24,508 nt of DNA from a virus. How positions within the stretch are numbered: the stretch's first letter is position 1; each line of letters starts with the position of its first letter. The stretch lies in the UHGV virus genome UHGV-0135138; one strand, given 5' to 3'. The position numbers were made by a program, and so were the translations under genes. The notes beneath the pieces were generated by a model. That model had not been told where the DNA came from and did not search any database. It saw nothing but the letters and a program-made list of their open reading frames with translations. Shown here piece by piece: positions 1,934 to 20,300 of this stretch.

Positions 1934-3508
1934 ATGGAATTGAACGACAAACAAATTAAGGATCTGGTGGCGCGACGCCACCCGGAATACGAAAAGAAAA
2001 AAGAACATTGGGACTTCCTCGCCAGCACTTACGCTGGCGGGCGTGGTTGGTTTACAGACAATATCTTTCGTTACTTTAAAGAGGGAGATCAGGAGTTTAA
2101 GGAGAGAGTTGAGCGTGCTTATCGCTTCAACCACACTCGTGAGGTGGTAAACCTCATCAACAAATATCTCTTTAAAGAAGACATTCATAGAAATATCGAA
2201 GAGGCACCAGAGCAGATCCGCAATTTCTGGAAACGTGCGACTCGCCAGAATGCCTCTATTGACTCATTTATGGCCGCTATTGATTTGCAGTCGTCTATTT
2301 ACGGTCGCATATGGGTTGTTGTCGATAGCACGATGAGTGGTGATGTTGAGTCAGTAGCTGACGAGAAAAAGAAAGATGCTCGCGCCTACGCCTACTGGAT
2401 TTCACCTCAGCAAATGCTGGATGTGGCATGGGACGACGACGGGAATATGTTGTGGGCGTTAATTGTGGAAGTCGCTCGTGATGACGCAGATCCTTTTACT
2501 TCTACAGGTCAGGAATACCAACGTTATCGTCTGTGGACACAAAATACGTGGTATCTGTTCCGTGAGGAAGTGAAGAAGGGCGCTGGTGGAGCAGGTCGTC
2601 GTCAGGCAAAAGTTATTTTAGAGGATAGCGGTGCGCATAATCTCGGCGTAGTTCCGGTGTTTCCTGTTGATTGTATTGGAGAAAGTGAATCACCGTATTT
2701 CAGCCCATCGTTGATCGATGATATCGCTTATCTTGATCGTGCGGTTGCAAACTATCTGTCAAACCTTGATGCCATTATTCAGGATCAGACATTTAGCCAG
2801 TTGGCTATACCGGTACAGTCGCTTTTACCTGGTGATGAAAACCACACTAAAGTGCTTGAAATGGGCACAAAGCGAGTCTTCACCTACGATTCTGAAGGTG
2901 GAAACCAGCCGTTTTATCTGTCACCAGACCCGAAACAAGCTCAGATGATCATCACTACGATTAAGACGGTGATTAACGAAATCTACCATTCAGTTGGTGT
3001 AGCTGGTGAGCGAACGAAGCAGGACAACGCACAGGGAATAGATAATTCATCTGGTGCCGCAAAAATGTATGACTTCCAGCGTGTAAATAGCTTACTCGTC
3101 ACAAAAGCAGAACGTCTGGAAAGGGCTGAGCGTCAAATCATGCAACTGGTTGCGAAATGGATGGGGGTAGATCTGGACGAAGATCACTCATTAATTGCGT
3201 ATCCAGAAAGTTTCGATATTCGTGGCCTTACTGATGAATTTTCTGTTGCCGAGAAACTGTCGTTACTTCAGGCACCGGACTCTGTACGTCGTCACCAGAT
3301 GGAAATGCTGATTGAGAAGATTTTCCCGAACATCACTGAGGCGATGAAGAAGGAATTTGATAAAGATCTCTTGAATTTTCCGCCAAAAAATGATCTAAAT
3401 ACCCTTGAAAATAAGTCAGCACTTACTTATGATCAAGGCGCAGCCCAAGAAAGCGGGCAAGATCAACCCCGAGGGAATGGGGACTCATCTACTCAAGAGA
3501 ACGAGTGA
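1934..3508 (+). CDS. portal protein (putative)
   Basis: 524-aa ORF immediately downstream of the large terminase, the canonical portal position. Size and acidic C-terminal tail fit portal proteins. No motif-level confirmation is possible without a search. Confidence 0.65.
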   Translation: MELNDKQIKDLVARRHPEYEKKKEHWDFLASTYAGGRGWFTDNIFRYFKEGDQEFKERVERAYRFNHTREVVNLINKYLFKEDIHRNIEEAPEQIRNFWKRATRQNASIDSFMAAIDLQSSIYGRIWVVVDSTMSGDVESVADEKKKDARAYAYWISPQQMLDVAWDDDGNMLWALIVEVARDDADPFTSTGQEYQRYRLWTQNTWYLFREEVKKGAGGAGRRQAKVILEDSGAHNLGVVPVFPVDCIGESESPYFSPSLIDDIAYLDRAVANYLSNLDAIIQDQTFSQLAIPVQSLLPGDENHTKVLEMGTKRVFTYDSEGGNQPFYLSPDPKQAQMIITTIKTVINEIYHSVGVAGERTKQDNAQGIDNSSGAAKMYDFQRVNSLLVTKAERLERAERQIMQLVAKWMGVDLDEDHSLIAYPESFDIRGLTDEFSVAEKLSLLQAPDSVRRHQMEMLIEKIFPNITEAMKKEFDKDLLNFPPKNDLNTLENKSALTYDQGAAQESGQDQPRGNGDSSTQENE

Positions 3509-3529
3509 TAAGTAACAAAGGGAATTTTT

Positions 3530-4417
3530 ATGAAACTGTGGCAAATGCTTTTGGCCCGTCGTGGTCTGATGGATGTTGCTGAAGCGCATGAGCGTGGAGG
3601 CGCTGGCGGTGTAGCTGCTGATAATGAGCAGAGTACACAAGATCCTGACAAACAGGGTGAACAAAAAGAGCAGCCGAAGGGTGATGACGAATACGCTGGC
3701 ATGACTCATGAAGAGTTACTGGCCGAACTTCGTAAAACCAAGAAAGCTGGTGCTGAACTGCTGAAAGAGAACATGAAGCGCAAAGAGAAAGAGCGCACAT
3801 TGGCCGATCAGCTTGCTCAGTACGGTGATATCGACCCGACGCGTGCTCGCCAGCTTTTAGAAGCTGAACAGGCCGCAGAAAATGCACGTCGTGAGGCGGA
3901 GCAAGCTGAACTGGAGCGTCGTGGTGAGTTCGATGCTGTAAAAAAACAGATGGTCGAAGCACACCAGGCAGAGCTGGCACAGCGTGACGAACGTTATGTT
4001 GCTCTGGAAAGTGAAAACGCATCACTGAAATCTCAATTAGTCGAGATGACTGTGGGCGCTTCCTTCAGTAACTCTCTCTTCCTACGTGACAAAGTTCTGA
4101 TGACTCCGGCAAAAGCCCGCGTGATCTACGGCTCTCATTTTGAAGTGGGTGAAGACGGTAGCGTAGTGGGTTATGACAAACCGGCAGGTCATAAAGAACG
4201 AGCTGTTCTGGTTGACGGTGAAGGTAAGCCGTTGCCGTTTGAATCCGCGATTGAACGCATTGTGCGGGCAGATCCGGAAGCTGACGCATTGATGCGTAGC
4301 GAAGCCAAGCAGGGTGTAGGCTCACATTCCAAATCGACCTACACAATATCCCGACCGAAGAACAAGTCGACTATGGATAAGTTGGCCTCCGGTCTGGGGA
4401 AAATTGGACTTAAGTAA
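3530..4417 (+). CDS. scaffolding protein (putative)
   Basis: 295-aa ORF between portal and capsid genes. Central region is highly charged and helical/coiled-coil-like (ELLAELRKTKKAGAELLKENMKRKEKERTLADQLAQ...EAEQAAENARREAEQAELERRGE). AAGGGA RBS 7 nt upstream of the ATG. No protease motif recognised. Confidence 0.55.
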   Translation: MKLWQMLLARRGLMDVAEAHERGGAGGVAADNEQSTQDPDKQGEQKEQPKGDDEYAGMTHEELLAELRKTKKAGAELLKENMKRKEKERTLADQLAQYGDIDPTRARQLLEAEQAAENARREAEQAELERRGEFDAVKKQMVEAHQAELAQRDERYVALESENASLKSQLVEMTVGASFSNSLFLRDKVLMTPAKARVIYGSHFEVGEDGSVVGYDKPAGHKERAVLVDGEGKPLPFESAIERIVRADPEADALMRSEAKQGVGSHSKSTYTISRPKNKSTMDKLASGLGKIGLK

Positions 4418-4442
4418 CATCTAAATCAAAGGGAATTGGTAG

Positions 4443-5324
4443 ATGCCATTACTGCGTGAAGAAGCTGAAAAGCTGTCTAACAACGAACTCGAACAGGGTG
4501 TGATCGAAACTATCATCGATCGCGATGACCTGTTTGCCATCCTGCCGTTCATGAAGATTAACTCTAAGGCGTATCTGTACAATCGCGAGGCTACCCTGAG
4601 TGAAGCAGAGTTTATTGACGTGAACGATACCATCACGGAAGGCGCAGCAACCTTCACAGAACATGTAGCGAAGCTGCGTATTCTGGCTGGTGACGTAGAC
4701 GTTGATAAATTCCTGGCAACCACGATGGCCGACACTAACAACCAGTTGGCCATTCAGGTTCGTCAGAAAGTTAAAGGTCTGGCTCGTGCATTCCGCCGTA
4801 ATCTGATTTTGGGGGATTCCAGCACCAATGCTAAGGCTTTTGATGGTATTCCACGTCTGATGCATAACGACCAGAAGATCGATATCGCTAAAGCCTCTAT
4901 GACTTTCTCTATGTTTGATGAGTTGGTGGATGCAGTGAAAGATCTGGGCGCGGACTGCATTATGATGCGTTCAGAACATCTTCGTGCTTACCGTGCGCTG
5001 CTGCGTACCGTCAACATCGGACCGTCAGAAATTATGATAGAGAATTTTGGGCGTCCTATGCTGTGTCACAACGGAATTCCGTTTATTGTTAATGACTTTA
5101 TTCCGTTGACAACCGAAAAGGATGCAGCGGATATTTACTGTTTGCATTTATCGGAAGAGAACGGTTTGACTGGCCTGTATGGCGGCGACAATGCTGGTAT
5201 TGTCGTTGAAAACATTGGTACGGTTCAGAATAAAGATGCAACCCGTACTCGTGTAAAATGGTACTGCTCTCTAGCGAATAAGCACGATAAGGCTATCGCT
5301 GCACTGACTAATGTAAAAATTTAA
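4443..5324 (+). CDS. major capsid protein (putative)
   Basis: 293-aa ORF directly after the scaffold candidate, with the same CAAAGGGAATT RBS context (4427-4437 and 3516-3526), followed by a strong intrinsic terminator. Position and size fit a major capsid protein. Confidence 0.6.
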   Translation: MPLLREEAEKLSNNELEQGVIETIIDRDDLFAILPFMKINSKAYLYNREATLSEAEFIDVNDTITEGAATFTEHVAKLRILAGDVDVDKFLATTMADTNNQLAIQVRQKVKGLARAFRRNLILGDSSTNAKAFDGIPRLMHNDQKIDIAKASMTFSMFDELVDAVKDLGADCIMMRSEHLRAYRALLRTVNIGPSEIMIENFGRPMLCHNGIPFIVNDFIPLTTEKDAADIYCLHLSEENGLTGLYGGDNAGIVVENIGTVQNKDATRTRVKWYCSLANKHDKAIAALTNVKI

Positions 5325-5333
5325 TCAATGTGG

Positions 5334-5351
5334 TAGGTAAGTAATTACCTA
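5334..5351 (+). promoter_or_regulatory. gene-junction element TAGGTAAGTAATTACCTA (imperfect inverted repeat TAGGTAA-n4-TTACCTA)
   Basis: 17/18 identical to 1905-1922. Lies 10 nt after the capsid stop and just upstream of the terminator hairpin. Confidence 0.35.
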
Positions 5352-5355
5352 TGTT

Positions 5356-5384
5356 AAAGGGTGGGCTATACGCCCACCCTTTTT
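5356..5384 (+). terminator. intrinsic (rho-independent) terminator after the capsid gene
   Basis: AAAGGGTGGGC-TATAC-GCCCACCCTTTTT: GC-rich stem of 8 bp (extendable to 11 with flanking A/T) followed by a T5 run. Confidence 0.8.
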
Positions 5385-5397
5385 GTAGGAATGAGAA

Positions 5398-6057
5398 ATG
5401 CCAGAACAAAAGATGATGATTACCGAAGAGGCCTTTTCGGATTTCACGGGGCATATGTGCCGTGTCGGATTTACCAATTCTATCTCCGATGAACCTTTAA
5501 CCGAGCGACAACAAAGTCAGCTATCAGCTTGTTTGCAGGCGACTTCCTTCACCCAATCCGTAAACATAACCCCTGCTTCAGCGTCAGTTTTGGTGGGGAA
5601 AAGCGTTCAACTAAGTGCAGGTATCAGTATGGGTAAGAGTGCCGGTTTATTCACCTGGAATTCAGCCAATGATCAAACTGCAACCGTTAACAGCAATGGG
5701 TTAGTAACTGGCGTAGCCCCTGGCAAAGTAAAAATTACTGCAACTGATCAGGAAACCCAGCTTTCCGCGTCAGCTGAAGTGACTGTAAATCCGGTAGCTG
5801 TTCAATCTGTAACTATAACGCCAGACTCAACCTCTGTTGAGAAAGGGAAATCAGTCAATCTGAAAGCGAATATCCAGCCGTCAAATGCGACGAATAAAGC
5901 AGTTACCTGGTCTTCCAAAAATGAAGATAAGGCAACGGTAAACCAGAGCGGTAACGTTACTGGTGTTGCTGCTGGTACTGCCACGATTGAGGTAACTACT
6001 CATGATGGTAGCCACAAAGCAACAGCGATCGTAGAGGTTACTGGCGCACAGGAATAA
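5398..6057 (+). CDS. Ig-like (Big_2-type) domain protein, candidate head decoration protein
   Basis: 219 aa. Two tandem ~80-aa segments with the bacterial Ig-like group 2 pattern (ITP.S.SV..GKSV.L.A...P.NATNK.VTWSS.N...ATVN.SG.VTGVA.G.A.I..T). Preceded by an AGGA RBS and located right after the capsid gene. Confidence 0.7.
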   Translation: MPEQKMMITEEAFSDFTGHMCRVGFTNSISDEPLTERQQSQLSACLQATSFTQSVNITPASASVLVGKSVQLSAGISMGKSAGLFTWNSANDQTATVNSNGLVTGVAPGKVKITATDQETQLSASAEVTVNPVAVQSVTITPDSTSVEKGKSVNLKANIQPSNATNKAVTWSSKNEDKATVNQSGNVTGVAAGTATIEVTTHDGSHKATAIVEVTGAQE

Positions 6058-6101
6058 TCAGTATTGGGCGGCGAAAGCTGCCCATGTAGAGAGAAAGCGT
6101 A

Positions 6102-6536
6102 ATGAAACCTGCAAAAATTGTTCTATTAGAACCACAATTTTCCAGTTATTCGGGAATGCTGTGCGGTGTTCAGTTCGAGAATGGTGTGTCCATCGCAGAG
6201 TTGCCTTTTGTCGATCAGCAGAGAATTTGTGCCTCAATGCGAGCTTCAACAGTAGAGGGCAAAAATGTTTCTCCATCTGCCGCATACAGTGATCGTGGTG
6301 AATTGACCGCAGACCTGATTACAGAGCCAGTAGCGCCTGACATTGTACCAATGAAACGTGGGATGCCAGATGGACCGACCAAACAGATCCAGACTTTCAC
6401 ACGAGAAGAGCTGGAGTCAATTGCAGACAATGAAGGCATTGCCGGTCTACGTGTAATTGGGAATCAGATGGGTGTTAAAGCGAAAGGAATTGTCGAGATG
6501 ATTGAAGGTATCCTGAAAGCACAAGGCGGTGAGTAA
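6102..6536 (+). CDS. hypothetical head-associated protein sharing its N-terminal module with the upstream Ig-like protein
   Basis: 144 aa. N-terminal ~45 aa (EPQFSSYSGMLCGVQFENGVSIAELPFVDQQRICASMRA) aligns with the N-terminus of the 5398-6057 product (EEAFSDFTGHMCRVGFTNSISDEPLTERQQSQLSACLQA); the C-terminal part is unrelated. Stop overlaps the next start (TAATG). Confidence 0.6.
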   Translation: MKPAKIVLLEPQFSSYSGMLCGVQFENGVSIAELPFVDQQRICASMRASTVEGKNVSPSAAYSDRGELTADLITEPVAPDIVPMKRGMPDGPTKQIQTFTREELESIADNEGIAGLRVIGNQMGVKAKGIVEMIEGILKAQGGE

Positions 6537-7369
6537 TGGCGCAGATCGACTCGTATCGTAGCGGTGAAGCTGTTTCCCTTTCATTTGCCTTCAACGTGCT
6601 GGATATCGAATCTGCTACCTACACAGTAAAGGACAGCACCGGGGGTATTCTCGTTGATGGCGAACTGCTAGAAATTGCCAGCGGGCAAATGTCGATTCCG
6701 GTTGTTGTTCCGGCTGAATACAACCAGCTTTCTGAGAAAGAACGAGATCTGCGGTACGTCATTGTGAAAGCTGTTGCATCGGGTCTGACGCATGAAGAGC
6801 GGCAAATGTATGTTCTGCTGAATAGTTTTGAATTGTCGATACCGGAACAGTCGTTTGCAACTGTCGCTGATGCTCAAATGCAGGCGATCGATATGCTGAA
6901 TGGGGACACTTTGCTGTCGGATGGTGAAGGCTTAATGCGCAAGCGTCTCATTGAGGCTACCAGACGAATTAAAACTTTACCGTTCTCAATCCGCAAAATT
7001 CTACGTATCGACTTTGACCGATACGATCGCCCTCAAAATATGCTGAATGTGTATGACATTCCGTGGGGGGCAGATGGAGCGTACCGGCATGATTTAGTCG
7101 ATTGGGAAAAGATGACGCAGGAGAAGTTTGAAGAGTTCCCTGACTATTTCAAAGAAGCGTTGATGCTTGCCGTTGTCAACGAAGCGTGTGAGATCGCAAA
7201 TGGCAATGATGTAGCCGCAGCACGAGAGGATGGCATTTTGTCAGAGTCCATCGGTGAAACAACCAACATGTACCGTACCGGTAAAGCTGCAAACGTGCAT
7301 GTGGCTCGCAGTACCTGGCGCTTGCTGGTCAGTTACATCAACAACCGTATGATTGTTCGCCGTGCGTAA
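6536..7369 (+). CDS. hypothetical structural protein (neck / head completion region)
   Basis: 277-aa ORF, translationally coupled to neighbours, in the block between head and tail genes. No recognisable motif. Confidence 0.5.
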   Translation: MAQIDSYRSGEAVSLSFAFNVLDIESATYTVKDSTGGILVDGELLEIASGQMSIPVVVPAEYNQLSEKERDLRYVIVKAVASGLTHEERQMYVLLNSFELSIPEQSFATVADAQMQAIDMLNGDTLLSDGEGLMRKRLIEATRRIKTLPFSIRKILRIDFDRYDRPQNMLNVYDIPWGADGAYRHDLVDWEKMTQEKFEEFPDYFKEALMLAVVNEACEIANGNDVAAAREDGILSESIGETTNMYRTGKAANVHVARSTWRLLVSYINNRMIVRRA

Positions 7370-7448
7370 CGCCAGTCGCATTATTTACTTTTGGTCGAAA
7401 GGGTTTTTGGCCAGTAATGAGAGCGACCGACAACAACAGGGAGAGTGC

Positions 7449-7793
7449 ATGAATATTTCATGGCAAACAGAAATTGCGATCTACCGCTTTGGCGTAAAGA
7501 ACGTTTACGGCGAGGCGCAATTGCAATTCGTCAGGAAGACGAATGTCGGCGTGGTTAAGTTCGAACAGAGTAATGAGAAATCGTCAGTTCGTGCTGATAG
7601 CTCTGGTAGTCGTGGTAAGGCGAGTCTGGAGCTGTTTGATGCTGTGTTAATTGTCCCTTTGGAAGCGGCTGTACAACTTGATGATGTGCTGATCCTTGAA
7701 GGTCAAAAATTAAAGGTGTCCAGTGTTCATCGCCGCTGGGGGCTACGAGGAAGACCAGGGCATCTTGAAGTGGGGGCGAATATATGGGTCTGA
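7449..7793 (+). CDS. hypothetical head-tail joining protein
   Basis: ORF is open from a TTG at 7353, but the ATG at 7449 has a GGGAGAG RBS 3-5 nt upstream and does not overlap the previous gene, giving a ~114-aa product. Position fits a head-tail adaptor or head closure protein. Confidence 0.5.
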   Translation: MNISWQTEIAIYRFGVKNVYGEAQLQFVRKTNVGVVKFEQSNEKSSVRADSSGSRGKASLELFDAVLIVPLEAAVQLDDVLILEGQKLKVSSVHRRWGLRGRPGHLEVGANIWV

Positions 7794-8257
7794 AATACGA
7801 TGCGCATCAGTTCAAACGTGCGGGGAATAGACTCAACAACAGCCAGAAAGCATTTAAGCGATATCTTATTCGGGACATGGAAAAGCTGGCGCGTTTGGTT
7901 GAGCGTCTCAGCCGTGCAATGGATCCGCTGGAAACCGGATCTCTGGAGACAGCTATCTTTGCCAGGGTGATTAAAGAAGGTTATTCAGGGCTGCGCATTG
8001 AGCTTTCTGTGTCTGGAGCAAAACCACGTCAGGGGCATCCGGGCGTAGAAGTAGGTGACTATGCTAAGTACATGGAGCTGGGTAAATATCGACTCGGTTA
8101 TCTTTCTCGAATGAAGAACGTGACAAACCCACCAATTGCCGGTGTTAAACCTCGTGTTGGGCCACACTTTCTGGAAAGAGCGGTGGAAATTAGCGAGAAG
8201 CAGTTCTCAGAAGCGATTCTTGAGGCTGCCAGAAAAGCCGGTTTTACGAGAGGTTAA
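7784..8257 (+). CDS. hypothetical head-tail joining / tail completion protein
   Basis: 157-aa ORF overlapping the previous gene by 10 nt and ending in TAATGTG, which overlaps the next start. Basic protein in the neck-gene position. Confidence 0.55.
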   Translation: MGLKYDAHQFKRAGNRLNNSQKAFKRYLIRDMEKLARLVERLSRAMDPLETGSLETAIFARVIKEGYSGLRIELSVSGAKPRQGHPGVEVGDYAKYMELGKYRLGYLSRMKNVTNPPIAGVKPRVGPHFLERAVEISEKQFSEAILEAARKAGFTRG

Positions 8258-8258
8258 T

Positions 8259-8642
8259 GTGTTTATCGAAGCGTTTGCAAGTTTGATGCAGAAGGCAAAG
8301 ATTGGCACGGTCGGGACTGACATTTTCTGTCACTACTTGCCTGCCAATGTGAAATCTGGCGTCCTGCTTATTAACCCAAATACCGGCATCAGCATCGATC
8401 ATGAGCTACAGGGCTTTTATCACGAATCATTCACAATCATTGTGCGTGGTTCATCAGTAACCACGACGGTTGATAAGGCCAATAAAATCATTGAGATGTT
8501 TCCAGTAGAGGAAACGGAATCTGGTGGTGTTTATTTTCGACTTGTACGACCGATGGCGATGCCAATCATTTATCCCAAAAATGATGGGGCATTAATAGAA
8601 GCAGGCATTCCTGTTGAATTTGCTGGCTATTTATTGAATTAA
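8259..8642 (+). CDS. hypothetical tail terminator / tail completion protein
   Basis: Frame is open from 8136, but a GTG at 8259 immediately follows the upstream stop (coupled start), giving ~127 aa. It is the last gene before the major tail protein gene. Confidence 0.5.
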   Translation: MFIEAFASLMQKAKIGTVGTDIFCHYLPANVKSGVLLINPNTGISIDHELQGFYHESFTIIVRGSSVTTTVDKANKIIEMFPVEETESGGVYFRLVRPMAMPIIYPKNDGALIEAGIPVEFAGYLLN

Positions 8643-8650
8643 GTCAATTG

Positions 8651-8666
8651 GTAAGTATATACTTAC
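8651..8666 (+). promoter_or_regulatory. perfect 16-bp palindrome GTAAGTATATACTTAC (TAAGTA family) upstream of the major tail protein gene
   Basis: Exact reverse-complement symmetry, in a 74-bp AT-rich intergenic region, 8 nt after the upstream stop and 50 nt before the ATG at 8717. Confidence 0.4.
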
Positions 8667-8716
8667 TGTTAGCGCAATAAATGCGTAGAATTAAAGGAAA
8701 AAGGAGTTTTCCATCA

Positions 8717-9463
8717 ATGTCTAATACCCATGTAAAAAACATCAAACTTGGTGCCTGTAAGGTGTCGTTTGGTGGTGTGGATTTGGGGTACACCAAAGGT
8801 GGTGTTCAGGTTGAAGTTGCCACTGAAACGCTGAAAGTCACCGTCGACCAGCACGGTCAGACAATTATGTCCGAGCTGGTGCAGGGTCGTAACATTACCA
8901 TTACTGCGCCGCTGGCCGAGTCTGTATTGAAAAATATGGTCGATCTGATGCCGGGGTCTACTCTGAGCGAAGACGACAACGCTGTGACCATTACTTCCGC
9001 ACAGGGCGTCAATCTGATCGATGTGGCGAAGGAGCTGGTTCTGACTCCGCAGGACACCACCGACTATGTGTTGACCATCCCAAAAGCGGCAACCGCGGGC
9101 AACTTCACGATGACCTACCAGTCTGATGATATCCGTGTGTTCTCTGTTCAATTCAGCGCATACCCAGATGACGCGGGTGTGTTGGGGAAAATGGGAATGC
9201 ACAAGCCTGTTGAGAGTATCGCGATTAATTCAGCTACCCAAACAGTCAAAGTGGGGGCAAAACTCCAGTTAAGTGCGGCTTTCACTCCAGCGGATGCAAG
9301 TAATAAATCTGGGGTATGGGAGTCTAATGCCCCAGATAAGGCTGTTGTAGATCAAAATGGGGTTGTTTCGGGCAAGGCGGTTGGCTCAGTCGAGATTACT
9401 TTCACCGCCGATGACAGCGGAAAAAAAGCAACTAAATCAATTTCGGTAACAGCAGCAGGCTAA
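8717..9463 (+). CDS. major tail (tube) protein with C-terminal Ig-like (Big_2-type) domain
   Basis: ORF is open from 8681, but the ATG at 8717 follows the strong RBS AAAGGAAAAAGGAG, giving ~248 aa. The C-terminal ~85 aa (IAINSATQTVKVGAKLQLSAAFTPADASNKSGVWESNAPDKAVVDQNGVVSGKAVGSVEITFTADDSGKKATKSISVTAAG) has the same Ig-like pattern as the 5398-6057 product. Followed by a hairpin and the chaperone-tape measure pair. Confidence 0.8.
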   Translation: MSNTHVKNIKLGACKVSFGGVDLGYTKGGVQVEVATETLKVTVDQHGQTIMSELVQGRNITITAPLAESVLKNMVDLMPGSTLSEDDNAVTITSAQGVNLIDVAKELVLTPQDTTDYVLTIPKAATAGNFTMTYQSDDIRVFSVQFSAYPDDAGVLGKMGMHKPVESIAINSATQTVKVGAKLQLSAAFTPADASNKSGVWESNAPDKAVVDQNGVVSGKAVGSVEITFTADDSGKKATKSISVTAAG

Positions 9464-9468
9464 ACGTC

Positions 9469-9494
9469 ATACGAGGCTTAATTAGGCCTCGTAT
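9469..9494 (+). terminator. stem-loop (possible partial terminator / attenuator) after the major tail protein gene
   Basis: ATACGAGGC-ttaattag-GCCTCGTAT, a 9-bp stem followed by CTTGTAT (only a partial U tract). Confidence 0.45.
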
Positions 9495-9517
9495 CTTGTA
9501 TAAAAGGATTTTAACAA

Positions 9518-9835
9518 ATGACCAAATTACTCGATCTCGATTCCATTCTGCCTCCGAAGAAAAGTATCAAATTTGGCGGTCAGGAATATCCCATCGTTGA
9601 AATGACGGTAGGTCTGTTCGTTTCCATCAAGCAGATGGAAGGTAAAGATCTCATGAACATGTCTCCTGTTGAGCAGGTGACAGCTTATGCAGATCTGGTT
9701 CGTAAGGTTATCCCTTCTGTACCTGACGAAGTTCTTGAAAAACTGACTGTTCCGCAACTCCAGCAGATCTTCAACTTCGCTATGGAAGTGATTGATGAAG
9801 AAAACGAAAAAGCGGCTGGCGAAGGGGCAAAGTAA
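9518..9835 (+). CDS. tail assembly chaperone (lambda G-like position)
   Basis: 105-aa acidic protein between the major tail protein and tape measure genes. Its 3' end overlaps an open downstream frame in the -1 register, the conserved chaperone arrangement. Confidence 0.7.
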   Translation: MTKLLDLDSILPPKKSIKFGGQEYPIVEMTVGLFVSIKQMEGKDLMNMSPVEQVTAYADLVRKVIPSVPDEVLEKLTVPQLQQIFNFAMEVIDEENEKAAGEGAK

Positions 9836-10185
9836 TTTCCCGCGATGAATCCGGGACAAGGACCGTCTCAATAGATCTCGGATTCTATTTCAGTCGTGTA
9901 GTTGCTCACTACGCCGTGTCGCCATTAGAGCTATTGAACATCCCTCTCACGATGTTCTGGATGCTCAGCCGTAATATAGACCGTCTGCGTGCGGAAGAAG
10001 ATGTCCGCAACTTACAAGTCGCTCGTGTATCCCAGGCGAATGGCGAGGCTGTAAAGGCGTTCATGGAGGGGTTGCAACTCAGGATTGGAAGACCAGTCGT
10101 TACAGATAAAGTCTACGATCCAAGCCAGGATAAGGCAGACCCTGACGCCAAAGAGCAACTGATGCAAATATTTGGCAGAGGATGA
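9799..10185 (+). CDS. -1 frame extension of the tail assembly chaperone (lambda GT-like frameshift product, putative)
   Basis: The -1 frame is open from 9799 (after TGATGA at 9793-9798) to the stop at 10183-10185 and overlaps the last 12 codons of the chaperone ORF. Candidate slip site is the A5G run at 9807-9812 (GAA AAA G). The only internal start is a GTG at 9916 with no RBS, so independent initiation is unlikely. Confidence 0.5.
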   Translation, partial: RKRKSGWRRGKVISRDESGTRTVSIDLGFYFSRVVAHYAVSPLELLNIPLTMFWMLSRNIDRLRAEEDVRNLQVARVSQANGEAVKAFMEGLQLRIGRPVVTDKVYDPSQDKADPDAKEQLMQIFGRG

Positions 10186-10192
10186 CAAGGGA

Positions 10193-13100
10193 ATGTCACA
10201 AAACGTAGAGTTTATCCTGTCGCTGGAAGACAAACAGTTTACAGCGACAATCGATCGTGCGGGGAAACTGCTTACTCGATTTGGTGAGCAGGTAACAAAG
10301 CCTGCTCAAAAAATCCAAACCTTTGAACGCTCTTTGGGTTCGGTCGCCCGTATCATTGGCGTTCTGGAAAGCAAGCTCGATTCTACGGCAGACAAACTAC
10401 AGGATGTAGCTGCCGGTTTTGAGCTTGCTTCAGATGCTACGCGTAAAATGCGTGGCAACATCACCAGCCTCAATTCTGGTCTTAAAGCCCTGATTGAGCG
10501 CGTCGATACGACAACTTCTTCAGTAGATAAACTCACCGCGTCATTACGTAAAGTGCAATCAGAGCTAAATGATTTCTCTGATTGGGCGACCTATGCAAGC
10601 AAAAGCGCAAGCCGCTTTGGTACGGAGGTAAAAGAAGCCTCTGCGTCCGTGAGTGGTATGAATACGCGCCTTAATACCACGACGAAGCGACTCAGTAATT
10701 GGGGCGTCACAACGAGCCAGGCTGCCGAGGGGCTGAAAAAGGTTCGTGAGCAGATGGACGAAGTTATCGGACGTCAGCAACTGATTAGCAAGCCGGTACG
10801 CGTTCGTACATCTGGAAATGGCGATGGTGGTAGCGGTAGCGGTAGCGGGCAGCGTAGCGGCGCTTCTGGCCATAGAGGTAAAAGTAACGAAGGAGGTATG
10901 TTCTCTGGTCTTCGTGGCAACATTTTCCTGCTTGGCGAGATCGGAGATGCAGCCAGAACGGTTACTGACATCATGTTTGGGTGGCAGAAACCTATTGTTG
11001 AAGCTGCGGCCGAAATGGAACGTATGCGGGTGATGCTTCGAGGGTTGAATAAGGAGAAGTCCAACCCTGGCCAGGCTGCTGCTGATGATATGAAGTACAT
11101 CGTAGACATGGCTCAAAATGCGCCGTTCGCGATGCAGGCGTTAACAGACTCCTTCGTGAAGTTTCGTTCTGCTGGCTTAGATCCAACCGATGGTTCTCTA
11201 AAGGCGCTGGTGGACTCCGTTGCTCGTTTTGGTGGGGATAGCGAACTTCTGAAGCGTGCATCCATTGCTATTCAGCAAATGTCCGGTAAGGGCGTCGTGT
11301 CAATGGAAGAGCTACGTCAGCAATTAGGTGAGGCGATTCCGACAGCAATGAACGCAATGGCCAAGGCTGCTGGTCTGACAATGGGCGAGTTAACTAAAGC
11401 TGTAGCATCTGGAACGGTAGAAGCCAAAAACGCACTGGCACTTATGTTCAAAGAGTTGAAGATGCAGAACGAGGGAGCTGCGTCCGAAATGATGAACACA
11501 TTTACCGGTACGTTGGCGCAAATGAAGACAGCCTTTACGCTGTTCGCGGACAAAGTAGGCCAGACTGGTTATTTGTCTTCTTTAAGAGAGGGAATGAAAG
11601 AACTCACCTCCCTGATGAATAGCGCAGGGGGTACATCTTTTGCTCACTCGTTGGGAAGTGGATTGACAACGGCTGTGGATGGCTTGCGTGACCTGGCGAA
11701 ATGGCTGATTAAAAACCAGGAGCTTGTTGTCACTTTCGGCAAAGCCGTCGCTGTAACGATGGCCTTCAGACTCCTCAAATCGGGGATTTCTGGTGTCATC
11801 GGCACTGCTAATAGCATGATCAGCACCTTTGCTACGGTATCCACCACAATACAGGGGACATTTGATCTTGCGACGACAGCCGTTAAACGCTTCAATCGAG
11901 CCTCGCGCATGGGACTATCTACCATCCCAGCATTGATTTTTGCTATTCGCAATGCATTTGCTGGCTTGACTGCGTTCATGGCTGCAAACCCTATAGGATT
12001 CTTCTTTACTGCTGCGGTAACGGCGGTTTCGACGCTGATCTGGCACATGAGCAGTCTGAGGAAGAAAGTCGAAGACGTTGTAAACAAAGTCAGAGAAATC
12101 CCTGAAGCGATGACGCAGGCAGATCGCGCGATACTGGAAAGCGAACTGAGCAAGAAAGATCGAGAGATCGCCAGACTGGAAAAAGAAGTCGAGACTGGCA
12201 AAACCTTGCATTTTTCAGCATACACGGGACCGTACGAAGTTGGTGTCGATGTTGACGACAGCAAAAAGAAACTGGAAAAAACGCGAAAAGAAAGAGAGGA
12301 AGTCGCCAAAGCTCTTGATGGCGGCATAGCCGAAACCACCAAACAAAGCATTACTAAGAAATATAGAGAGGATATTGATGCGGTCAACCAGAAAGGGAAT
12401 GCATTAATAGCCTCACTCGCCAAAGAGATAGAAAGACTCACCAAAAGCAATGAGAAAATTGCCGCGCGGTCGGACTTGTCCGACCACGAAAAAAGCAAAT
12501 TAAGGGCAGAAAACAACGCAGAACTTGGACGTTTGTACGCCCAGGCCGACGAGCAAAAACTCAAAGGGTATAAAGCTCGTTATGAGAAGGGGCTTGGTGA
12601 ACTCGCCACATACTCAGAGGCGCTCAAAAAGGCCCAAGAGTCGAACGATATGCAGGGGCAAAAAGAAGCCCAGACAAAGATAGACTCCACCACCGAGGCT
12701 TTGAAGATTGTAAAAGAGGGGATGGAGAACCTTGAAATCAGTCTTAGCGTGAAAGCTGGGGACGGCTTGGTTTCTATTAATGGCGGTAAAATTGGTGAGT
12801 TTTCAAGCACACCAGTTGATGCTAATTCCAAAACTATGACTGGTTTTTGGAAACAGCAGATGGACTCTAAAAGGTATCAAAGAGTCAATCTCGATGGTTC
12901 CGCATTATACGACTTACAAGGTCAACCTGTTGTTGGGCCTCGACAACTCAAGGAGCAATTAAGACAGAAGAAAATTTACGGTGATGTGAAATTAGAGCAG
13001 TTGTCAGAAAATGACCGCATCGCAGTAATTAAGACTCTGACAAAAGCTCGTGAACTTGATGCTGAAGCAGCGGATAAGGCAGCAAACCGTACCGCAAAAG

Positions 13101-14767
13101 CAGCCGAGAGAGCAGCCAAGAAAGAACAGGCAGCGCAACAGAAACTGGCAGCCGGATACCAGAAGGCTCTGGACAAAGCCGATCAGCTTATGGGGCAAAT
13201 GGGGGAAAGCTCTAAGGCTACGGTATCGTTTGATCAGTCTCTTCGCGATACAACGAAATCGCTGACAGATTTGGCTAATGCGGTTCCTAACGAGTTCATC
13301 ACTCAAGAGATGATCGACAAGGCGAAAAAACGTCTTGAAGACCTCAAAAATGCGACACCTGAATATCGCGAGATGTTTAATCGCCGCAATGTTGAGCAGA
13401 TGATCTCCACTTGGGCACCGGAGGCGGATTCCATTATTAGTGCTGGCTATACGCCGTCTCGTGAAGAGAAAGTTGCTGATTTCGAAGACACCTACAACCG
13501 TAATCTTAAAGCATTGATTGATTTACGGAAAGCTGCGATTGAGTCAGGCACAGCATCACAAAGCCAGATTGAGTTGTTCGGTAAAAAGATCAATCAACTT
13601 ATTGCTGCTGGCAATACCGCGCTTATTAAAGAGACGGGGACTGCGACGCAGAAGTTGGCACTGGAATACGAAAACCTGGCAGAGCAGATCGAAAGCACCT
13701 GGACGGATTTGTTTAGTGGCTTAACTGATGTCCTGACTGATTTCGTTATTAACGGGAAGATGAGCTTCTCCAGCCTGTCTCAGTCCATTTTGAAAGATAT
13801 CACCAATATGGTCGTGAAGTCGCAGATCACGCTACCTCTGATGAACATGTTGGGGATGGGAACCACCGCAGCTGGTAGTTCGCAGAGTGGTAATTTGCTG
13901 ACCGGGGTTGCTTCCGCCGTTGCCAATCAAGGGGTACGAATGGGCAACACTGTTAATGGTGACAAGTCGGTAGGAGAAGCCACGAAGGAGACGTCCAGTT
14001 CGGTAACTGGATTGGGGCAAACGACACAGCAGACCACCAGCGCAATTGGTACTGCAACAAATGCGATTGGTAGCTGGGTATCAGGGCTATTTGATAGCAC
14101 TGAAGCCAAAGATACCGAGACAAAAGCCGTGAAGGACTCCATCTTCTCGATGCAGAACCTCAGCTCTGTTACCGGAGCGCTATCTGCCGCTTTTGCAATG
14201 CTTGGGGCTAACGCTTCCGGCTCTGGTAATAAGTGGTTGAATTTTGGAGCAACGGTTGCAACTGGCCTTGTTTCCGTCTGGGCTGGTGGTGGTTTTGATA
14301 AACTACTGTCAAGCTCTTCGAGAACAACTTCCGGCTTTAATAATCTGACCGGCCCAGCTGCTGACGGCACGAATGGCATCCCTGCAATTCCGAAGTTCGC
14401 AAATGGTGGCATATTCGGAAAAGACGGTGTGATTCCGCTTCGAGCGTATCAGAAAGGTGGTATTGCCAACTCTCCCCAATTGGCGTTGTTTGGAGAAGGT
14501 TCTATGAATGAGGCGTATGTTCCATTGCCTGATGGTCGAACGATCCCCGTAACGCTCAGTACCGATGGTATGAGTGGAAACGGAAACGTTCTTTCTCCGG
14601 TATCAATTGAGATCAACGTCCATAGTGACGGCAGCACAACTGAATCCGGTGATAAAGAAAGCATATGGAACAATGCCGCTCAACGGGTGAAAGCTGTCGT
14701 GCTTGAGACTATCGCTCAAGAGAAACGCCCTGGCGGATCACTCAATCCAAACACTCAACGTAACTAA
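10193..14767 (+). CDS. tail tape measure protein
   Basis: Very long ORF (open from TTG 10172; first ATG at 10193, ~1525 aa) directly after the chaperone pair. Extended helical/coiled-coil segments, internal hydrophobic stretches (GLSTIPALIFAIRNAFAGLTAFMAANPIGFFFTAAVTAVSTLIW), a Gly/Ser-rich tract, and a Gly-rich C-terminal region of the kind seen in lambda H (recalled). Confidence 0.9.
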   Translation: MSQNVEFILSLEDKQFTATIDRAGKLLTRFGEQVTKPAQKIQTFERSLGSVARIIGVLESKLDSTADKLQDVAAGFELASDATRKMRGNITSLNSGLKALIERVDTTTSSVDKLTASLRKVQSELNDFSDWATYASKSASRFGTEVKEASASVSGMNTRLNTTTKRLSNWGVTTSQAAEGLKKVREQMDEVIGRQQLISKPVRVRTSGNGDGGSGSGSGQRSGASGHRGKSNEGGMFSGLRGNIFLLGEIGDAARTVTDIMFGWQKPIVEAAAEMERMRVMLRGLNKEKSNPGQAAADDMKYIVDMAQNAPFAMQALTDSFVKFRSAGLDPTDGSLKALVDSVARFGGDSELLKRASIAIQQMSGKGVVSMEELRQQLGEAIPTAMNAMAKAAGLTMGELTKAVASGTVEAKNALALMFKELKMQNEGAASEMMNTFTGTLAQMKTAFTLFADKVGQTGYLSSLREGMKELTSLMNSAGGTSFAHSLGSGLTTAVDGLRDLAKWLIKNQELVVTFGKAVAVTMAFRLLKSGISGVIGTANSMISTFATVSTTIQGTFDLATTAVKRFNRASRMGLSTIPALIFAIRNAFAGLTAFMAANPIGFFFTAAVTAVSTLIWHMSSLRKKVEDVVNKVREIPEAMTQADRAILESELSKKDREIARLEKEVETGKTLHFSAYTGPYEVGVDVDDSKKKLEKTRKEREEVAKALDGGIAETTKQSITKKYREDIDAVNQKGNALIASLAKEIERLTKSNEKIAARSDLSDHEKSKLRAENNAELGRLYAQADEQKLKGYKARYEKGLGELATYSEALKKAQESNDMQGQKEAQTKIDSTTEALKIVKEGMENLEISLSVKAGDGLVSINGGKIGEFSSTPVDANSKTMTGFWKQQMDSKRYQRVNLDGSALYDLQGQPVVGPRQLKEQLRQKKIYGDVKLEQLSENDRIAVIKTLTKARELDAEAADKAANRTAKAAERAAKKEQAAQQKLAAGYQKALDKADQLMGQMGESSKATVSFDQSLRDTTKSLTDLANAVPNEFITQEMIDKAKKRLEDLKNATPEYREMFNRRNVEQMISTWAPEADSIISAGYTPSREEKVADFEDTYNRNLKALIDLRKAAIESGTASQSQIELFGKKINQLIAAGNTALIKETGTATQKLALEYENLAEQIESTWTDLFSGLTDVLTDFVINGKMSFSSLSQSILKDITNMVVKSQITLPLMNMLGMGTTAAGSSQSGNLLTGVASAVANQGVRMGNTVNGDKSVGEATKETSSSVTGLGQTTQQTTSAIGTATNAIGSWVSGLFDSTEAKDTETKAVKDSIFSMQNLSSVTGALSAAFAMLGANASGSGNKWLNFGATVATGLVSVWAGGGFDKLLSSSSRTTSGFNNLTGPAADGTNGIPAIPKFANGGIFGKDGVIPLRAYQKGGIANSPQLALFGEGSMNEAYVPLPDGRTIPVTLSTDGMSGNGNVLSPVSIEINVHSDGSTTESGDKESIWNNAAQRVKAVVLETIAQEKRPGGSLNPNTQRN

Positions 14768-17297: not shown

Positions 17298-17314
17298 TCA
17301 AGGATTTTTTGGAC

Positions 17315-20300
17315 ATGGAACAGTTCAAGCAAAAAAAATTACCGCTTCTTATTGGCGGCGCTGGTGGTAAAAAAAGTAGCAAAAGCTCCAGCCGTACTCC
17401 GGTTGAAGCTGACGATACCGTGAATTCTCGTGCAATGGCCGCTATCCTCGATCTTCTTGGGGAAGGGGTAATTGGCGGCTTAGTAAATGGCGCAAGATCT
17501 ATTTTTGTCGACGATTTACCGATTGTAAATGAAGACGGCTCCTCCAATTTTAGCGGAATTACTTGGGATTTTCGCGACGGTTCACAAGACCAGACTCCAA
17601 TGTCCGGCTTTGATTTCGTTGAAACACCCAAATCCGTCAATATTCAATTAAAAAAAACACATTATGTAACGGTTTCAATCGATAACGATGAAGCTGATCG
17701 TGTTCGTGTCATCATGAAGTTTCCTTCTTTGCGAAGCGTAGATAAAAAAACTGGTGACACGAACGGCACGACTGTTGAGTACAAGTTCCAGATAGCGAAT
17801 GGCGACTCAACATTTGTAGATGTGGTTGCAGAAGGTGAAAAAAGCGTTGGCATTAAGCTAACTGCAAAGAAGACAGGTGTTTATTACCGTAGTTATGAAC
17901 TGAAGTTACCTAAGCCTGGGCGCGCGTATAAGGTGCGTGTTGTCCGTATTACCGATGACAACAACAGTCAGTATCTCTATAACGACACATGGGTAGACTC
18001 AATAGGTGAGATTGTTGATACACCGATGAACTACCCAAACTCTGTGCTGGTGGGGTTGAAGGTTAATTCTGAGCAGTTTGGCAACTCTATGCCATCTCGT
18101 TCGTATTTGGTGCGAGGATTAAAAATTCGTGTGCCGTCAAACTACAACGAATCCAGCAACACTTATGTGGGCGTATGGGATGGCACTTTTAAGCTGCTGT
18201 CTTCTTCGAACCCTGCGTGGATTCTCTTTGATTTGCTTACCAATGCTCGATATGGTCTTGGGCAATTCGTGTCGGAATCCATGATTGACCTTGGCCAACT
18301 GTACCAGATTGGTCGATATTGTGACGAAGAGGTCGATGATGGCTTTGGGGGTAAAGAGAAACGCTTTGCAATCAATACGCAGATCACCAGTCGACAGGAC
18401 GCATACCGATTAATTCAGGATATTGCCGGTGCATTCCGCGGCATGGTGTTTTGGGCTGGTGGCATGGTTAACATCATGCAGGATAGCCCATCAGATCCGG
18501 TAATGATGTTTACTAACTCCAACGTCAAAGATGGATTGTTTTCCTATAAAGGTTCTGCACGTAAAGATCGTCCATCAGTTGCGCTCGTGACTTATAACAA
18601 CAAGGAGGACGGTTATAAGCAAAATATCGAGTACGTCGAAGATCAGGAAGCAATGCGCCGTTATGGTGAGCGCAAAACAGAAGTCGTAGCATTTGGCTGT
18701 ACAAGTCGAGGACAGGCTCACCGAGTTGGTTTGTGGCTTTTGTATACCGCCAGAATGGAGTCGGATGTAATTACATTTACTGCCGGTTTAGACGCCTCAT
18801 TTCTGATGCCTGGTGAAACCGTTCTGATTCAGAATAAATATCGCGCGGACAAACGTAACTCCGGTCGAATTATGGAGTTTACCAAAAACAGCATCACTCT
18901 CGATGCGCCTGTGTCGTTAACTAAAAGCGGCAGCTTTATTCGGATACTGAATCAGGAAGGCAAAATCGTTGAACGCGATGTTCTTGAAACTGGCGAAAAC
19001 ATAACAAAGGTTACGTTTTCAAAAGCCCTGACGTCAGCGGAAACGCCTGTTTTGAGCGGTGTCTGGACAATTACAGAACCAGATCTCGAACCTATGCGCG
19101 TTCGCATCGTTAACATCGCGCAGGGGGAAACGCCGGGTAGCTTTGACATCACCGCTGTTGAGAACAATCCGACTAAATATGAGGCGATCGACAATGGTGC
19201 AACGCTTATCCCGCAGAATACGACGGTATTGGACCCGACTTACTCGAAGCCGTCTAATTTGCAAATCACTGAAGGGACTTATCTCTCAAGTCCGGGCAAC
19301 CTGTCAGTAAAATTGACTGCAACATGGGAAGGAAAATCTCCAGAATATTGGATCAGCTGGCGACGTTCAGATGAAAGCAATGTATCGAACTGGCAATCGG
19401 CGCGTGTAACCGAAGAGCAATACGAAATCGTTAATGTTGCGGAGAATGGACGCTACGACTTCCAGCTGTATGCGGTTTCATTCAACGGTAAAAAAACAGA
19501 GATCATCAGCACCGTTTATCAGGTGCAGGGCACAATGACTCCACCTGATTCGCCAACGTCATTAACGGCAGTTGGGGACTATCGAAATGTGATACTGAAT
19601 TGGATTAATCCAGATTCGGTGGACCTTGATCATATTAATGTTTACGCATCCAAGGTTAACAATCTGGATACAGCGAAACTGATCGCAGAGTCTGCAAGCA
19701 CCACCTTTACACATGCTGGTCTTGGGGATAACGAAACGTGGTATTACTGGGTGCGAGCATCGAACAAGCGCGGCATGTTAAGCCCTCCGAACTCAAACTT
19801 GGGTACAGAGGCGACAACTCGCGATGTATTGTCGTTCCTGACTGGCAAAATTACATCTTCCGAGCTTGGTCAGGCCTTGACTGAGGAAATTAGCTCAAAA
19901 GCCTCTCAGGAGGCGGTGAACTCCATCTATGAACAGATTGATGAAAGCCTGAAGAACCTTGATGGCAAGTTTTCAGAGACAGATCGGCGGCTTGAAGAAG
20001 CTCAAAACGATCTTAAAACGGAGGTTTCCAGCACCGTCAGCAAGGTAGAAGACGCTCTTAAAGAGGTTGAAGACTCTAACGCTGCTTTAATTCAGCTACA
20101 GGAGACTGTCTCCGAGCAGGGCAAGGCTGTGGCTGGTGCAGTCGAAGCGGCCCATGCTGCGTTCGAAAATGCTTCTGCATTGATTGCCGAAGAACGTGAG
20201 GCTCGAGTAGAAGGAGATATGGCTAACGCTAAACAGATTGAGACAATGAAATCTTCTGTTGACGATAGTGTTGCGGCAGTTGAAGAGATGAAGAAAACTG

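Follow-up and report, generated by a model that had tools for sequence, protein, structure and literature searches.

Big_2 immunoglobulin-like domains of an SSU5-like phage-plasmid: a hybrid repeat in the head-slot gene, a divergent tail domain and no recent exchange between head and tail

The viral sequence UHGV-0135138, a stretch of 24,508 nucleotides (nt) analysed here at its full length and referred to as the window, is one whole metagenome contig (ENA ERZ1749178, NODE_636) and, judged from its gene content and relatives, the structural module of an SSU5-like phage-plasmid of Enterobacteriaceae (the SSU5, pHCM2 and pMT1 group). It encodes three immunoglobulin (Ig)-like domains of the Big_2 type, two in tandem on a 219-amino-acid (aa) protein (5398-6057) and one at the C-terminus of the tail tube protein (8717-9463), both genes lying on the + strand like every long open reading frame (ORF) in the window. 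We consider it likely that these domains are accessory modules without any exchange between head and tail, the second head domain being a hybrid repeat and the tail domain a swapped cassette. The three domains would be old paralogues, each the positional orthologue of the matching domain in related elements. Existing annotations already describe orthologues of the two genes as Ig-domain proteins, and the one new idea of an initial annotation of this DNA was that the similarity of the domains hints at exchange between head and tail genes within one genome.

Confirmation and positional orthology of the Big_2 domains

Pfam Big_2 (PF02368; gathering cut-off 22.8 bits) matches the 5398-6057 product twice (E = 1.7e-45, 153.3 bits) and the tail protein once (E = 4.2e-19, 68.7 bits), at residues 176-252 of the 260-aa ORF 8681-9463, and the Ig-like assignment made initially for all three domains therefore holds. 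A domain hidden Markov model built in this analysis placed the first head domain (D1) at aa 52-131 (envelope; 5551-5790), the second head domain, denoted D2′ below, at aa 135-215 (5800-6042) and the tail domain at aa 165-245 (9209-9451). D1 is 87% identical in aa to D1 of Escherichia phage Cyrano, one of several relatives with three head domains (D1, D2 and D3). All three domains of the window form beta-sandwiches in AlphaFold2 (AF2) models, with a predicted local distance difference test (pLDDT) score >90, and Foldseek matched them to the Big_2-CBM56 structure 7quz at a root-mean-square deviation of 0.8-1.5 Å and also to LigA and lambda gpV. The tail ORF exists as first described, with the exception of its start, which we place at 8717 (248 aa) and not at 8681 because all homologues begin MSNTHVKN. 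That phages carry Ig-like domains on their heads and tails has been known for long (since 2006), and both the Big_2 assignment and the gene contexts agree with the initial view of the domains as surface-type accessory modules of this known kind.

The domains do resemble each other: both peptides quoted in the initial annotation are present, and identity reaches 39% over 83 aa (BLASTP E = 2e-16). This head-tail similarity is real homology, but at a level typical of any two phage Big_2 domains. Within the window, identity is 47% between D1 and D2′, 38% between D2′ and the tail domain and 33% between D1 and the tail domain; the head-tail pairs (33-38% in aa) share no DNA, and no direct DNA repeat longer than about 15 nt was found to link the head and tail Ig segments. 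The in-genome pair is no closer than unrelated Big_2 domains, an outcome that the initial annotation had itself named as a refutation. The tail domain is 40-46% identical to the Big_2 domains of Salmonella phage BP63, Pseudomonas phage Holyagarpour, a Stenotrophomonas phage and a Latilactobacillus phage, and D2′ is 52-53% identical to those of BP63 and the Stenotrophomonas phage. A tblastn search of 50,697 phage records returned dozens of unrelated phages at 41-48% identity to the tail domain and 51-56% to D2′, with more than 45 unrelated phage records outscoring the head-tail pair of the window. Class means tell the same story, averaging 44% between head D2/D3 and tail domains, 44% between head D2/D3 and outgroups and 41% between tail domains and outgroups, compared with 57% among tail alleles and 70% among head D2/D3 domains.

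In neighbour-joining trees of 27-44 domains, clustering follows position across elements and not genome, with bootstrap support of 96-100% for the D1 clade, 80-92% for D2 plus D3 and 70-91% for the tail domains, and with the outgroups placed between the clades of head domains and of tail domains. The sister-clade relation of D2 and D3 is consistent with a tandem duplication inside the head gene. The tail domain of the window is the least head-like of all tail alleles examined (33-40%). Because the Big_2 domains are positional orthologues, the trees argue for no head-tail exchange in this genome; an ancient common origin of head and tail domains, predating the diversification of the family, would be compatible with them. 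One fragment, T_P0141_d1 (E = 0.53), produced an artefactual cluster with 100% bootstrap and was judged spurious, being ignored and then removed for the class means. In the distant relative P0260, the head-module Big_2 is 40-43% identical to tail types as against 39%, a difference within the noise.

Array length, hybrid repeat and location of the head-slot protein

The 219-aa protein matches phrog_215 ('structural protein with Ig domain', E = 6e-70), and its exact sequence is present in a public collection (P0002). In relatives, the same head-slot gene encodes an N-terminal module of about 50 aa (A) followed by zero to three Big_2 domains. The full arrangement, A-D1-D2-D3 (301-307 aa), is found in SSU5, in Cyrano and in the majority of E. 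coli and Salmonella elements (two clusters, with 946 and 358 sequences). Shorter forms include A-D1-D2 in pMT1, A-D2-D3 in P0029, A-D1 in AnCo3, A-D2 in P0032, A-D3 in Klebsiella (a cluster of 454 sequences) and A only in Pectobacterium, Moellerella and Xenorhabdus types, while the gene is truncated in the C. freundii plasmid pCF_324-3 and absent from phage PhiR41_1. The predominating architectures differ between Klebsiella, E. coli, Salmonella and Y. pestis elements.

The second head domain of the window is a hybrid, with ancestral D2 forming its N-terminal two thirds, ancestral D3 its C-terminal third and a crossover at about nt 5965. In a codon alignment the best match switches from Cyrano D2 to Cyrano D3 at about alignment position 180, and nt identity is 93% to Cyrano D2 over 5791-5964 and 87% to Cyrano D3 over 5965-6057. 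The best-fit breakpoint lies at gene nt 567-569, with 261 nt (87 codons) deleted. As far as the aligned repeats can tell, this domain is the product of in-register unequal homologous recombination between tandem repeats. The head array would change length by such recombination, and an 87-codon deletion from a three-domain ancestor would have left the D2::D3 form. One-repeat deletions have arisen independently, with crossovers elsewhere than that of the window, in a finished E. asburiae plasmid (258 bp, junction within the 12-nt identity CGCAACCAATAA, 2 mismatches to SSU5 overall) and in pMT1 (261 bp, junction within a 17-34-nt identity). The D2::D3 hybrid form is rare (a cluster of 3 sequences), and the hybrid head protein was not found among 5,426 complete E. 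coli genomes.

Two further observations concern the same gene. A head-slot variant from E. coli, P0028 (178 aa), carries an out-of-register deletion inside D2, joining VQSVTV to DQSGN, and the partial Ig domain that results probably cannot fold. In PhiR41_1, the major capsid protein (L003, 544-1464) has 306 aa versus 293 aa in the window, with the 22-aa segment KNGVKVTEGSEQKTEGQEGTAN in place of LTTEKDAAD of the window protein; the longer capsid protein may reflect compensation for, or co-variation with, the loss of the head-slot gene.

The N-terminal module of the 219-aa protein (5398-5550), a presumed virion-attachment 'anchor', is paralogous to the N-terminus of the product of the next gene, a 144-aa protein (6102-6536). 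Residues 1-50 of the Ig protein and the N-terminus of the 144-aa protein (nt 6102-6251) share 31% identity (E = 5e-8), and phrog_916 matches both proteins (E = 1e-66 for the 144-aa paralogue). A profile search of 1.84 billion representative proteins returned 72 with the module, which was N-terminal in every one. Most of these are of the 144-aa, non-Ig type, made up of the module, a linker and a conserved C-terminal helical motif (YT.EELE.IAD..GI.GLR...G.K.RSI..LI..IL.AQ) that is often followed by acidic tails, and such homologues are widespread beyond Enterobacteriaceae. The C-terminal third of the window's own 144-aa protein (nt 6380-6536) reads ..T.EELE.IAD..GI.GLR..G...GVK.KGI.EMI.GIL.AQ, a motif that distant homologues also have. 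No Pfam match and no useful PDB sequence relative was found for this paralogue, and a sub-threshold Rho_N match to the C-terminal motif in one homologue (E = 0.09) was dropped as evidence. PDB sequence searches likewise gave no similarity between the N-terminal module and known capsid-binding domains and no useful relatives of the capsid protein. AF2 predicts a helix at residues 36-48 of the 219-aa protein, and we infer that the module may be a virion-attachment element that becomes ordered on binding.

The initial annotation had called the 219-aa protein capsid-associated. Its gene does lie between the major capsid and head-tail adaptor genes, and this gene order, together with the PHROG category, makes the capsid the most likely location. 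A placement at the neck, connector or tail through the N-terminal module, in lieu of capsid decoration, is in our estimation unlikely but deserves consideration, given that the gene stands at the head/neck boundary of the structural module and its paralogue (6102-6536) directly 5′ of the adaptor gene. GenBank record MK422451.1 moreover labels the orthologue 'tail tube protein', and many PHROG matches are tail proteins, although through the Ig domains only. The best full-length family, phrog_215, is by contrast categorised 'head and packaging', the gene is immediately 3′ of the major capsid gene, as is common for decoration genes, and the architecture parallels that of T5 pb10 (PMC5292684); the 'tail tube' label is also contradicted by the real tube gene at 8717-9463. 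In MK422451.1 (L004) that label belongs to a one-domain orthologue at 1502-1930, which the Cyrano and SSU5 records call an Ig-domain structural protein; it stands alone and may be a mis-annotation. Head-slot Ig domains are variably lost, the gene being absent in PhiR41_1 (listed host E. coli MG1655) and truncated in pCF_324-3, and its product being Ig-less in four distant relatives. Comparison across the family thus suggests an accessory, dispensable role, in which the 5398-6057 product would be a surface protein, most likely on the capsid, whose N-terminal module displays a short Big_2 array.

The tail tube protein, its proposed Ig cassette and a probable frameshift site in relatives

The N-terminal part of the 248-aa protein (8717-9196) has a tail tube fold. 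Foldseek paired the AF2 model of the whole protein (pLDDT 82.5) over its full length with mycobacteriophage Douge gp13 (E = 3e-11), T5 pb6, lambda gpV, Chi and YSD1, and the N-terminal domain also matches Ig-less tube proteins (R4C, Sf11, HFTV1). No Pfam tube family matched this domain, and no Pfam or PHROG name gave a tail tube identity; it is the modelled fold and the position of the gene, flanked by the tail terminator gene on one side and by those for chaperone and tape measure on the other, that bear out the initial identification of a major tail protein. The 8717-9463 product would accordingly resemble lambda gpV and T5 pb6 in type, a tail tube protein with a C-terminal Big_2 domain.

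Tube and Ig domains differ sharply in their conservation. Across all pairs of 18 in-frame Ig-bearing tube proteins, mean identity is 90% for the tube domain and 57% for the Ig domain. The tube domain of the window is 89-96% identical in aa to most in-frame Ig-bearing homologues (a few are lower, to 79%), whereas its tail Ig reaches 68% with the allele of Klebsiella type and 46-53% with those of the E. coli, Salmonella and related types; the best PLSDB nt match for the tail Ig segment is 68%. A database search with the 86-aa tail Ig alone found nothing, the word index being too coarse for so short a query, and relatives of the domain were sought instead by tblastn against phages and with full-length queries. 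Relative to Cyrano, nt identity is 97.6% over 7370-8716 and 90% in the tube domain, falls to 50-60% in a sliding window beyond about 9170, where blastn finds a single 75-nt match at 69% over 9171-9463, and is back at 98.8% from about 40 nt after the stop codon. Klebsiella elements have the nearest tail Ig, yet their tube domain is 91% identical to that of the window versus 96% for the E. coli type. This tube/Ig discordance and the sharp nt boundary at about 9170 lead us to propose replacement of the tail Ig from a pool of alleles, and the sequence pattern indicates that it behaves as an exchangeable cassette. The segment, fused in frame, would be a swapped cassette, very different from one element to another even where the rest of their sequence is almost the same.

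Without any replacement, rapid diversifying selection acting in place could also drive a tail Ig apart. It would suit surface-exposed Ig domains, and fast evolution under vertical descent would account for the single clade into which the tail alleles fall (70-91% bootstrap). We nevertheless hold it to be improbable, since a stretch of about 60 nt at the edge of the domain is enough for identity to Cyrano to drop from 92-98% to 50-60%, with a recovery just 3′ of the stop codon, and since the discordance between the Klebsiella-type Ig and the tube domain is a signature of recombination.

The way in which the Ig is joined to the tube also varies between relatives. The C-terminal residues (N/A/S)PK are common to eight clusters of 'Ig-less' tube proteins that have 163 aa. 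In the four loci that were read (L018, L020, L021 and L023), the tube ORF ends with C_CCA_AAG and a stop codon, and a complete Big_2 domain of 86-87 aa lies in the -1 frame, which continues past the heptamer as PKV.V.. into the domain (the region concerned lies at 5940-6295 in L018 and at about 1945-2260 in the other three). Relatives of the L018 type probably use a programmed -1 frameshift, as their sequences predict; gene callers miss the -1-frame Ig or call a separate 78-aa ORF (L023). In-frame forms from SSU5, pMT1, AnCo3, C. freundii and Klebsiella have kept the in-phase heptamer at gene nt 483 (loci L002, which is SSU5, L004, L005, L008 and L009). Slippage by -1 there would lead to a stop codon 2-3 codons further on and to an Ig-less tube protein. 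The heptamer with a -1-frame Ig is absent from the window, where the junction reads ATG CAC AAG CCT (9190-9205) and the Ig is in frame; Cyrano is also without it (CCT AAA). With the Ig in frame and the heptamer lost, every tube subunit of the window element should carry the Ig, which would project from each of them.

Other tube genes show related features. Distant tube homologues of 160-185 aa without an Ig occur in Xenorhabdus, Providencia, Moellerella, Pectobacterium and alpha-proteobacterial elements. In two loci of Moellerella and Xenorhabdus types (L017 5968-5992, L019 5980-5992), the tube gene ends with A_AAA_AAG and a stop codon at the same position, and a 30-36-aa non-Ig extension is open in the -1 frame. 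Among E. coli-type tail proteins of 162-187 aa (P0144-P0150), several abundant clusters (77-80 sequences) are cut short by a frameshift that falls at the tube/Ig junction or immediately beyond it; the truncation may point to defective elements, to errors made in sequencing the slippery site or to variants that truly lack the Ig. In Latilactobacillus phage TMW 1.1447 P1 (L014, 1046-1755), used only as an outgroup, the major tail protein as annotated runs to 1510 and another frame holds a Big_2 domain (1501-1755), which is likely another frameshift-added Ig. A co-occurrence of tube Ig and head-slot Ig, suggested by four 'Ig-less' relatives that seemed to have neither, fails in L018, which combines a -1-frame tail Ig with an anchor-only head-slot protein.

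Alternative explanations, genomic setting and known counterparts

A domain recently copied between the head and tail genes of this genome would offer another reason why the head and tail Big_2 domains are alike. Besides the shared family and the identity of 38-39% within the window (E = 2e-16), it could draw on the 49-54% identity between tail domains and head D3 in some relatives and on a frameshift-borne tail Ig that is up to 59% identical to a head D3. We judge it very improbable all the same: unrelated phages have Big_2 domains nearer to each of the two than these are to one another, similarity at the DNA level is lacking, the positional clusters carry 70-100% bootstrap support, the tail domain of the window is less head-like than the other tail alleles, and L018 has a tail Ig but no head Ig. 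On these comparisons, the in-genome exchange hinted at in the initial annotation is refuted as a recent event. That the two-domain head protein and the odd tail Ig are low-coverage assembly artefacts (repeat collapse or chimeric joining) is scarcely credible, for although the contig coverage is 3.57x and the tandem repeats share sequence, a Logan contig (SRR1761716) from another assembler is 100% identical over window positions 3363-9396, a third contig also has the exact protein, the D2/D3 identities near the junction are too short for k-mer collapse, similar one-repeat deletions exist in finished plasmids (pMT1 and E. asburiae), and both reading frames are open.

The explanation by accessory modules, a hybrid head repeat and a swapped tail cassette has weaknesses of its own, to which the case made above for in-place diversification of the tail Ig may be added. 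Deep nodes of the 81-column domain trees have <50% support, AF2 leaves residues 1-30 of the 219-aa protein unfolded (pLDDT about 40), PDB and literature searches found no solved structure and no virion proteomics for the SSU5 family, and the contig coverage is only 3.6x, with two assemblies that may share the same reads. A search of the literature for the Ig domains of SSU5 or Cyrano found nothing specific.

The window shares 86.7% nt identity with Cyrano over 4400-6043 and 91.7% over 5860-9900 (blastn), and about 78-80% with Salmonella phage SSU5, gene order being identical in both comparisons. The segment from the capsid gene to the 144-aa gene matches 756 PLSDB plasmids, including Y. pestis pMT1; the matching records are mostly non-mobilizable, and six that were examined measure 94-125 kb. 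Among complete E. coli genomes the module is present in 216 of 5,426, on plasmids only. It is this identity and synteny, together with the occurrence on plasmids, that supports the assignment to the SSU5-like phage-plasmids, a class assigned here from the structural module, with replication and partition genes lying outside the window.

The layout is that of a siphophage structural module. Terminase (651-1907), portal (1934-3508) and scaffold-like DUF6651 protein (3530-4417) genes are followed by the major capsid gene (4443-5324), whose product matches phrog_212 'major head protein' (E = 1e-104) and, weakly, the Pfam families SrpI-like and SU10_MCP. The gene of the 219-aa accessory virion protein, orthologue of SSU5_006 and CYRAN_6, and that of its 144-aa paralogue come next, and then the genes for adaptor, head-closure and neck proteins and the tail terminator (6536-8642; Phage_tail_terminator_6, PF12691, at 8259-8642). 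Beyond the tube gene lie two small chaperone-like ORFs (9518-9835 and 9916-10185) and the tape-measure gene (10172-14767), 3′ of which are encoded lambda-like M, L, K, I and J tip proteins, a tail fibre and a fibre-assembly protein. The structural module is mosaic beyond its Ig segments. The major capsid gene is only 84% identical in nt to that of Cyrano, versus about 97% for the genes in 6536-8716. Further modules of Ig-fold type sit on the gpJ-like tip attachment protein (17309-21475), namely FNIII-A_GpJ (aa 104-238) and an fn3 match (aa 647-730), and with them the virion would carry more Ig-like domains than the three Big_2.

SSU5_006 and SSU5_012, like CYRAN_6 and CYRAN_12, are direct orthologues of the two Ig-bearing genes, sharing gene positions, the N-terminal module, the tube domain and Big_2 content, and are annotated as 'structural protein with Ig domain' and 'Ig domain containing protein / tail protein with Ig-like domain'. 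They differ from the window in having three head Big_2 domains (301-307 aa) in place of two with a D2::D3 hybrid, and their tail Ig is only about 51% identical to that of the window. Lambda gpV and T5 pb6 share with the window's tail protein a tube-fold N-terminal domain and a C-terminal Big_2, with sequence matches to gpV-C and pb6, but show no detectable sequence similarity in the tube domain, which in T5 pb6 is moreover duplicated. The Ig lies parallel to the tube in lambda and protrudes at a right angle to it in T5, and that of the window protein may do either. T5 pb10 and T4 Hoc, to which the 219-aa protein would correspond, combine a small conserved binding module with exposed Ig domains and are accessory and dispensable, and a Hoc-like protein (7x30_P) is the second-best PDB sequence match; however, neither the pb10 N-terminal domain nor the Hoc capsid-binding domain has detectable similarity to the ~50-aa module, and the head-slot family, unlike them, varies from 0 to 3 Ig domains. 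The Ig domains added by frameshift in the manner of SPP1 gp17.1* find their counterpart in L018, L020, L021 and L023, and not in the window with its in-frame fusion (CAC AAG). Leptospira LigA/LigB and intimin/invasin resemble the 219-aa protein in their tandem Ig-like repeats, with LigA the best structural match of the two-domain model, but these are outer-membrane adhesins, and the array of the window is much shorter and belongs to a virion protein with an N-terminal attachment module.

The addition of Ig-like domains to tail tube proteins by programmed frameshift has been described (Fraser et al. 2006 J Mol Biol 359:496, as cited in PMC8718954). The Ig part of tube proteins of the gpV/pb6 type is dispensable or semi-dispensable, removal of lambda gpV-C cutting activity about 100-fold (PMC8718954). 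Phage Ig domains in general have been proposed, without proof, to be weak binders of surface carbohydrates (PMC8718954, PMC5292684), the T5 pb10 Ig among them (PMC5292684), and retention at epithelia and in mucus has recently been shown to follow from the display of phage Ig proteins (PMC13370021). The adhesive role suggested in the initial annotation is thus an accepted if unproven view in the literature. By analogy, the domains of the window may serve weak multivalent adhesion to surface carbohydrates of bacteria or mucus.

More speculatively, and with little confidence on our part, Ig display in the SSU5-group phage-plasmids might constitute a tunable, host-tracking adhesion system with three controls. 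The head array would shrink or grow between 0 and 3 domains by repeat recombination, the tail Ig would be an exchangeable cassette, and the C_CCA_AAG site would set the fraction of tube subunits bearing an Ig, a -1 slip adding the Ig where a stop codon follows the site and dropping it in the in-frame form. If such tuning were real, the window would be a variant in which decoration of the tail is fixed at its maximum and the head array has been shortened. Taken singly, the hybrid repeat, the tail cassette and the alternation of frameshift and fusion are tidy but unsurprising cases of known principles. Together they form a natural series, within one abundant and clinically relevant plasmid-phage family (SSU5, pHCM2, pMT1), of how Ig display modules evolve, through hybrid Ig domains made by in-register recombination, cassette-like replacement of the tail Ig and switching between frameshift and in-frame attachment, and this series offers testable material on the long-standing question of what phage Ig domains do.

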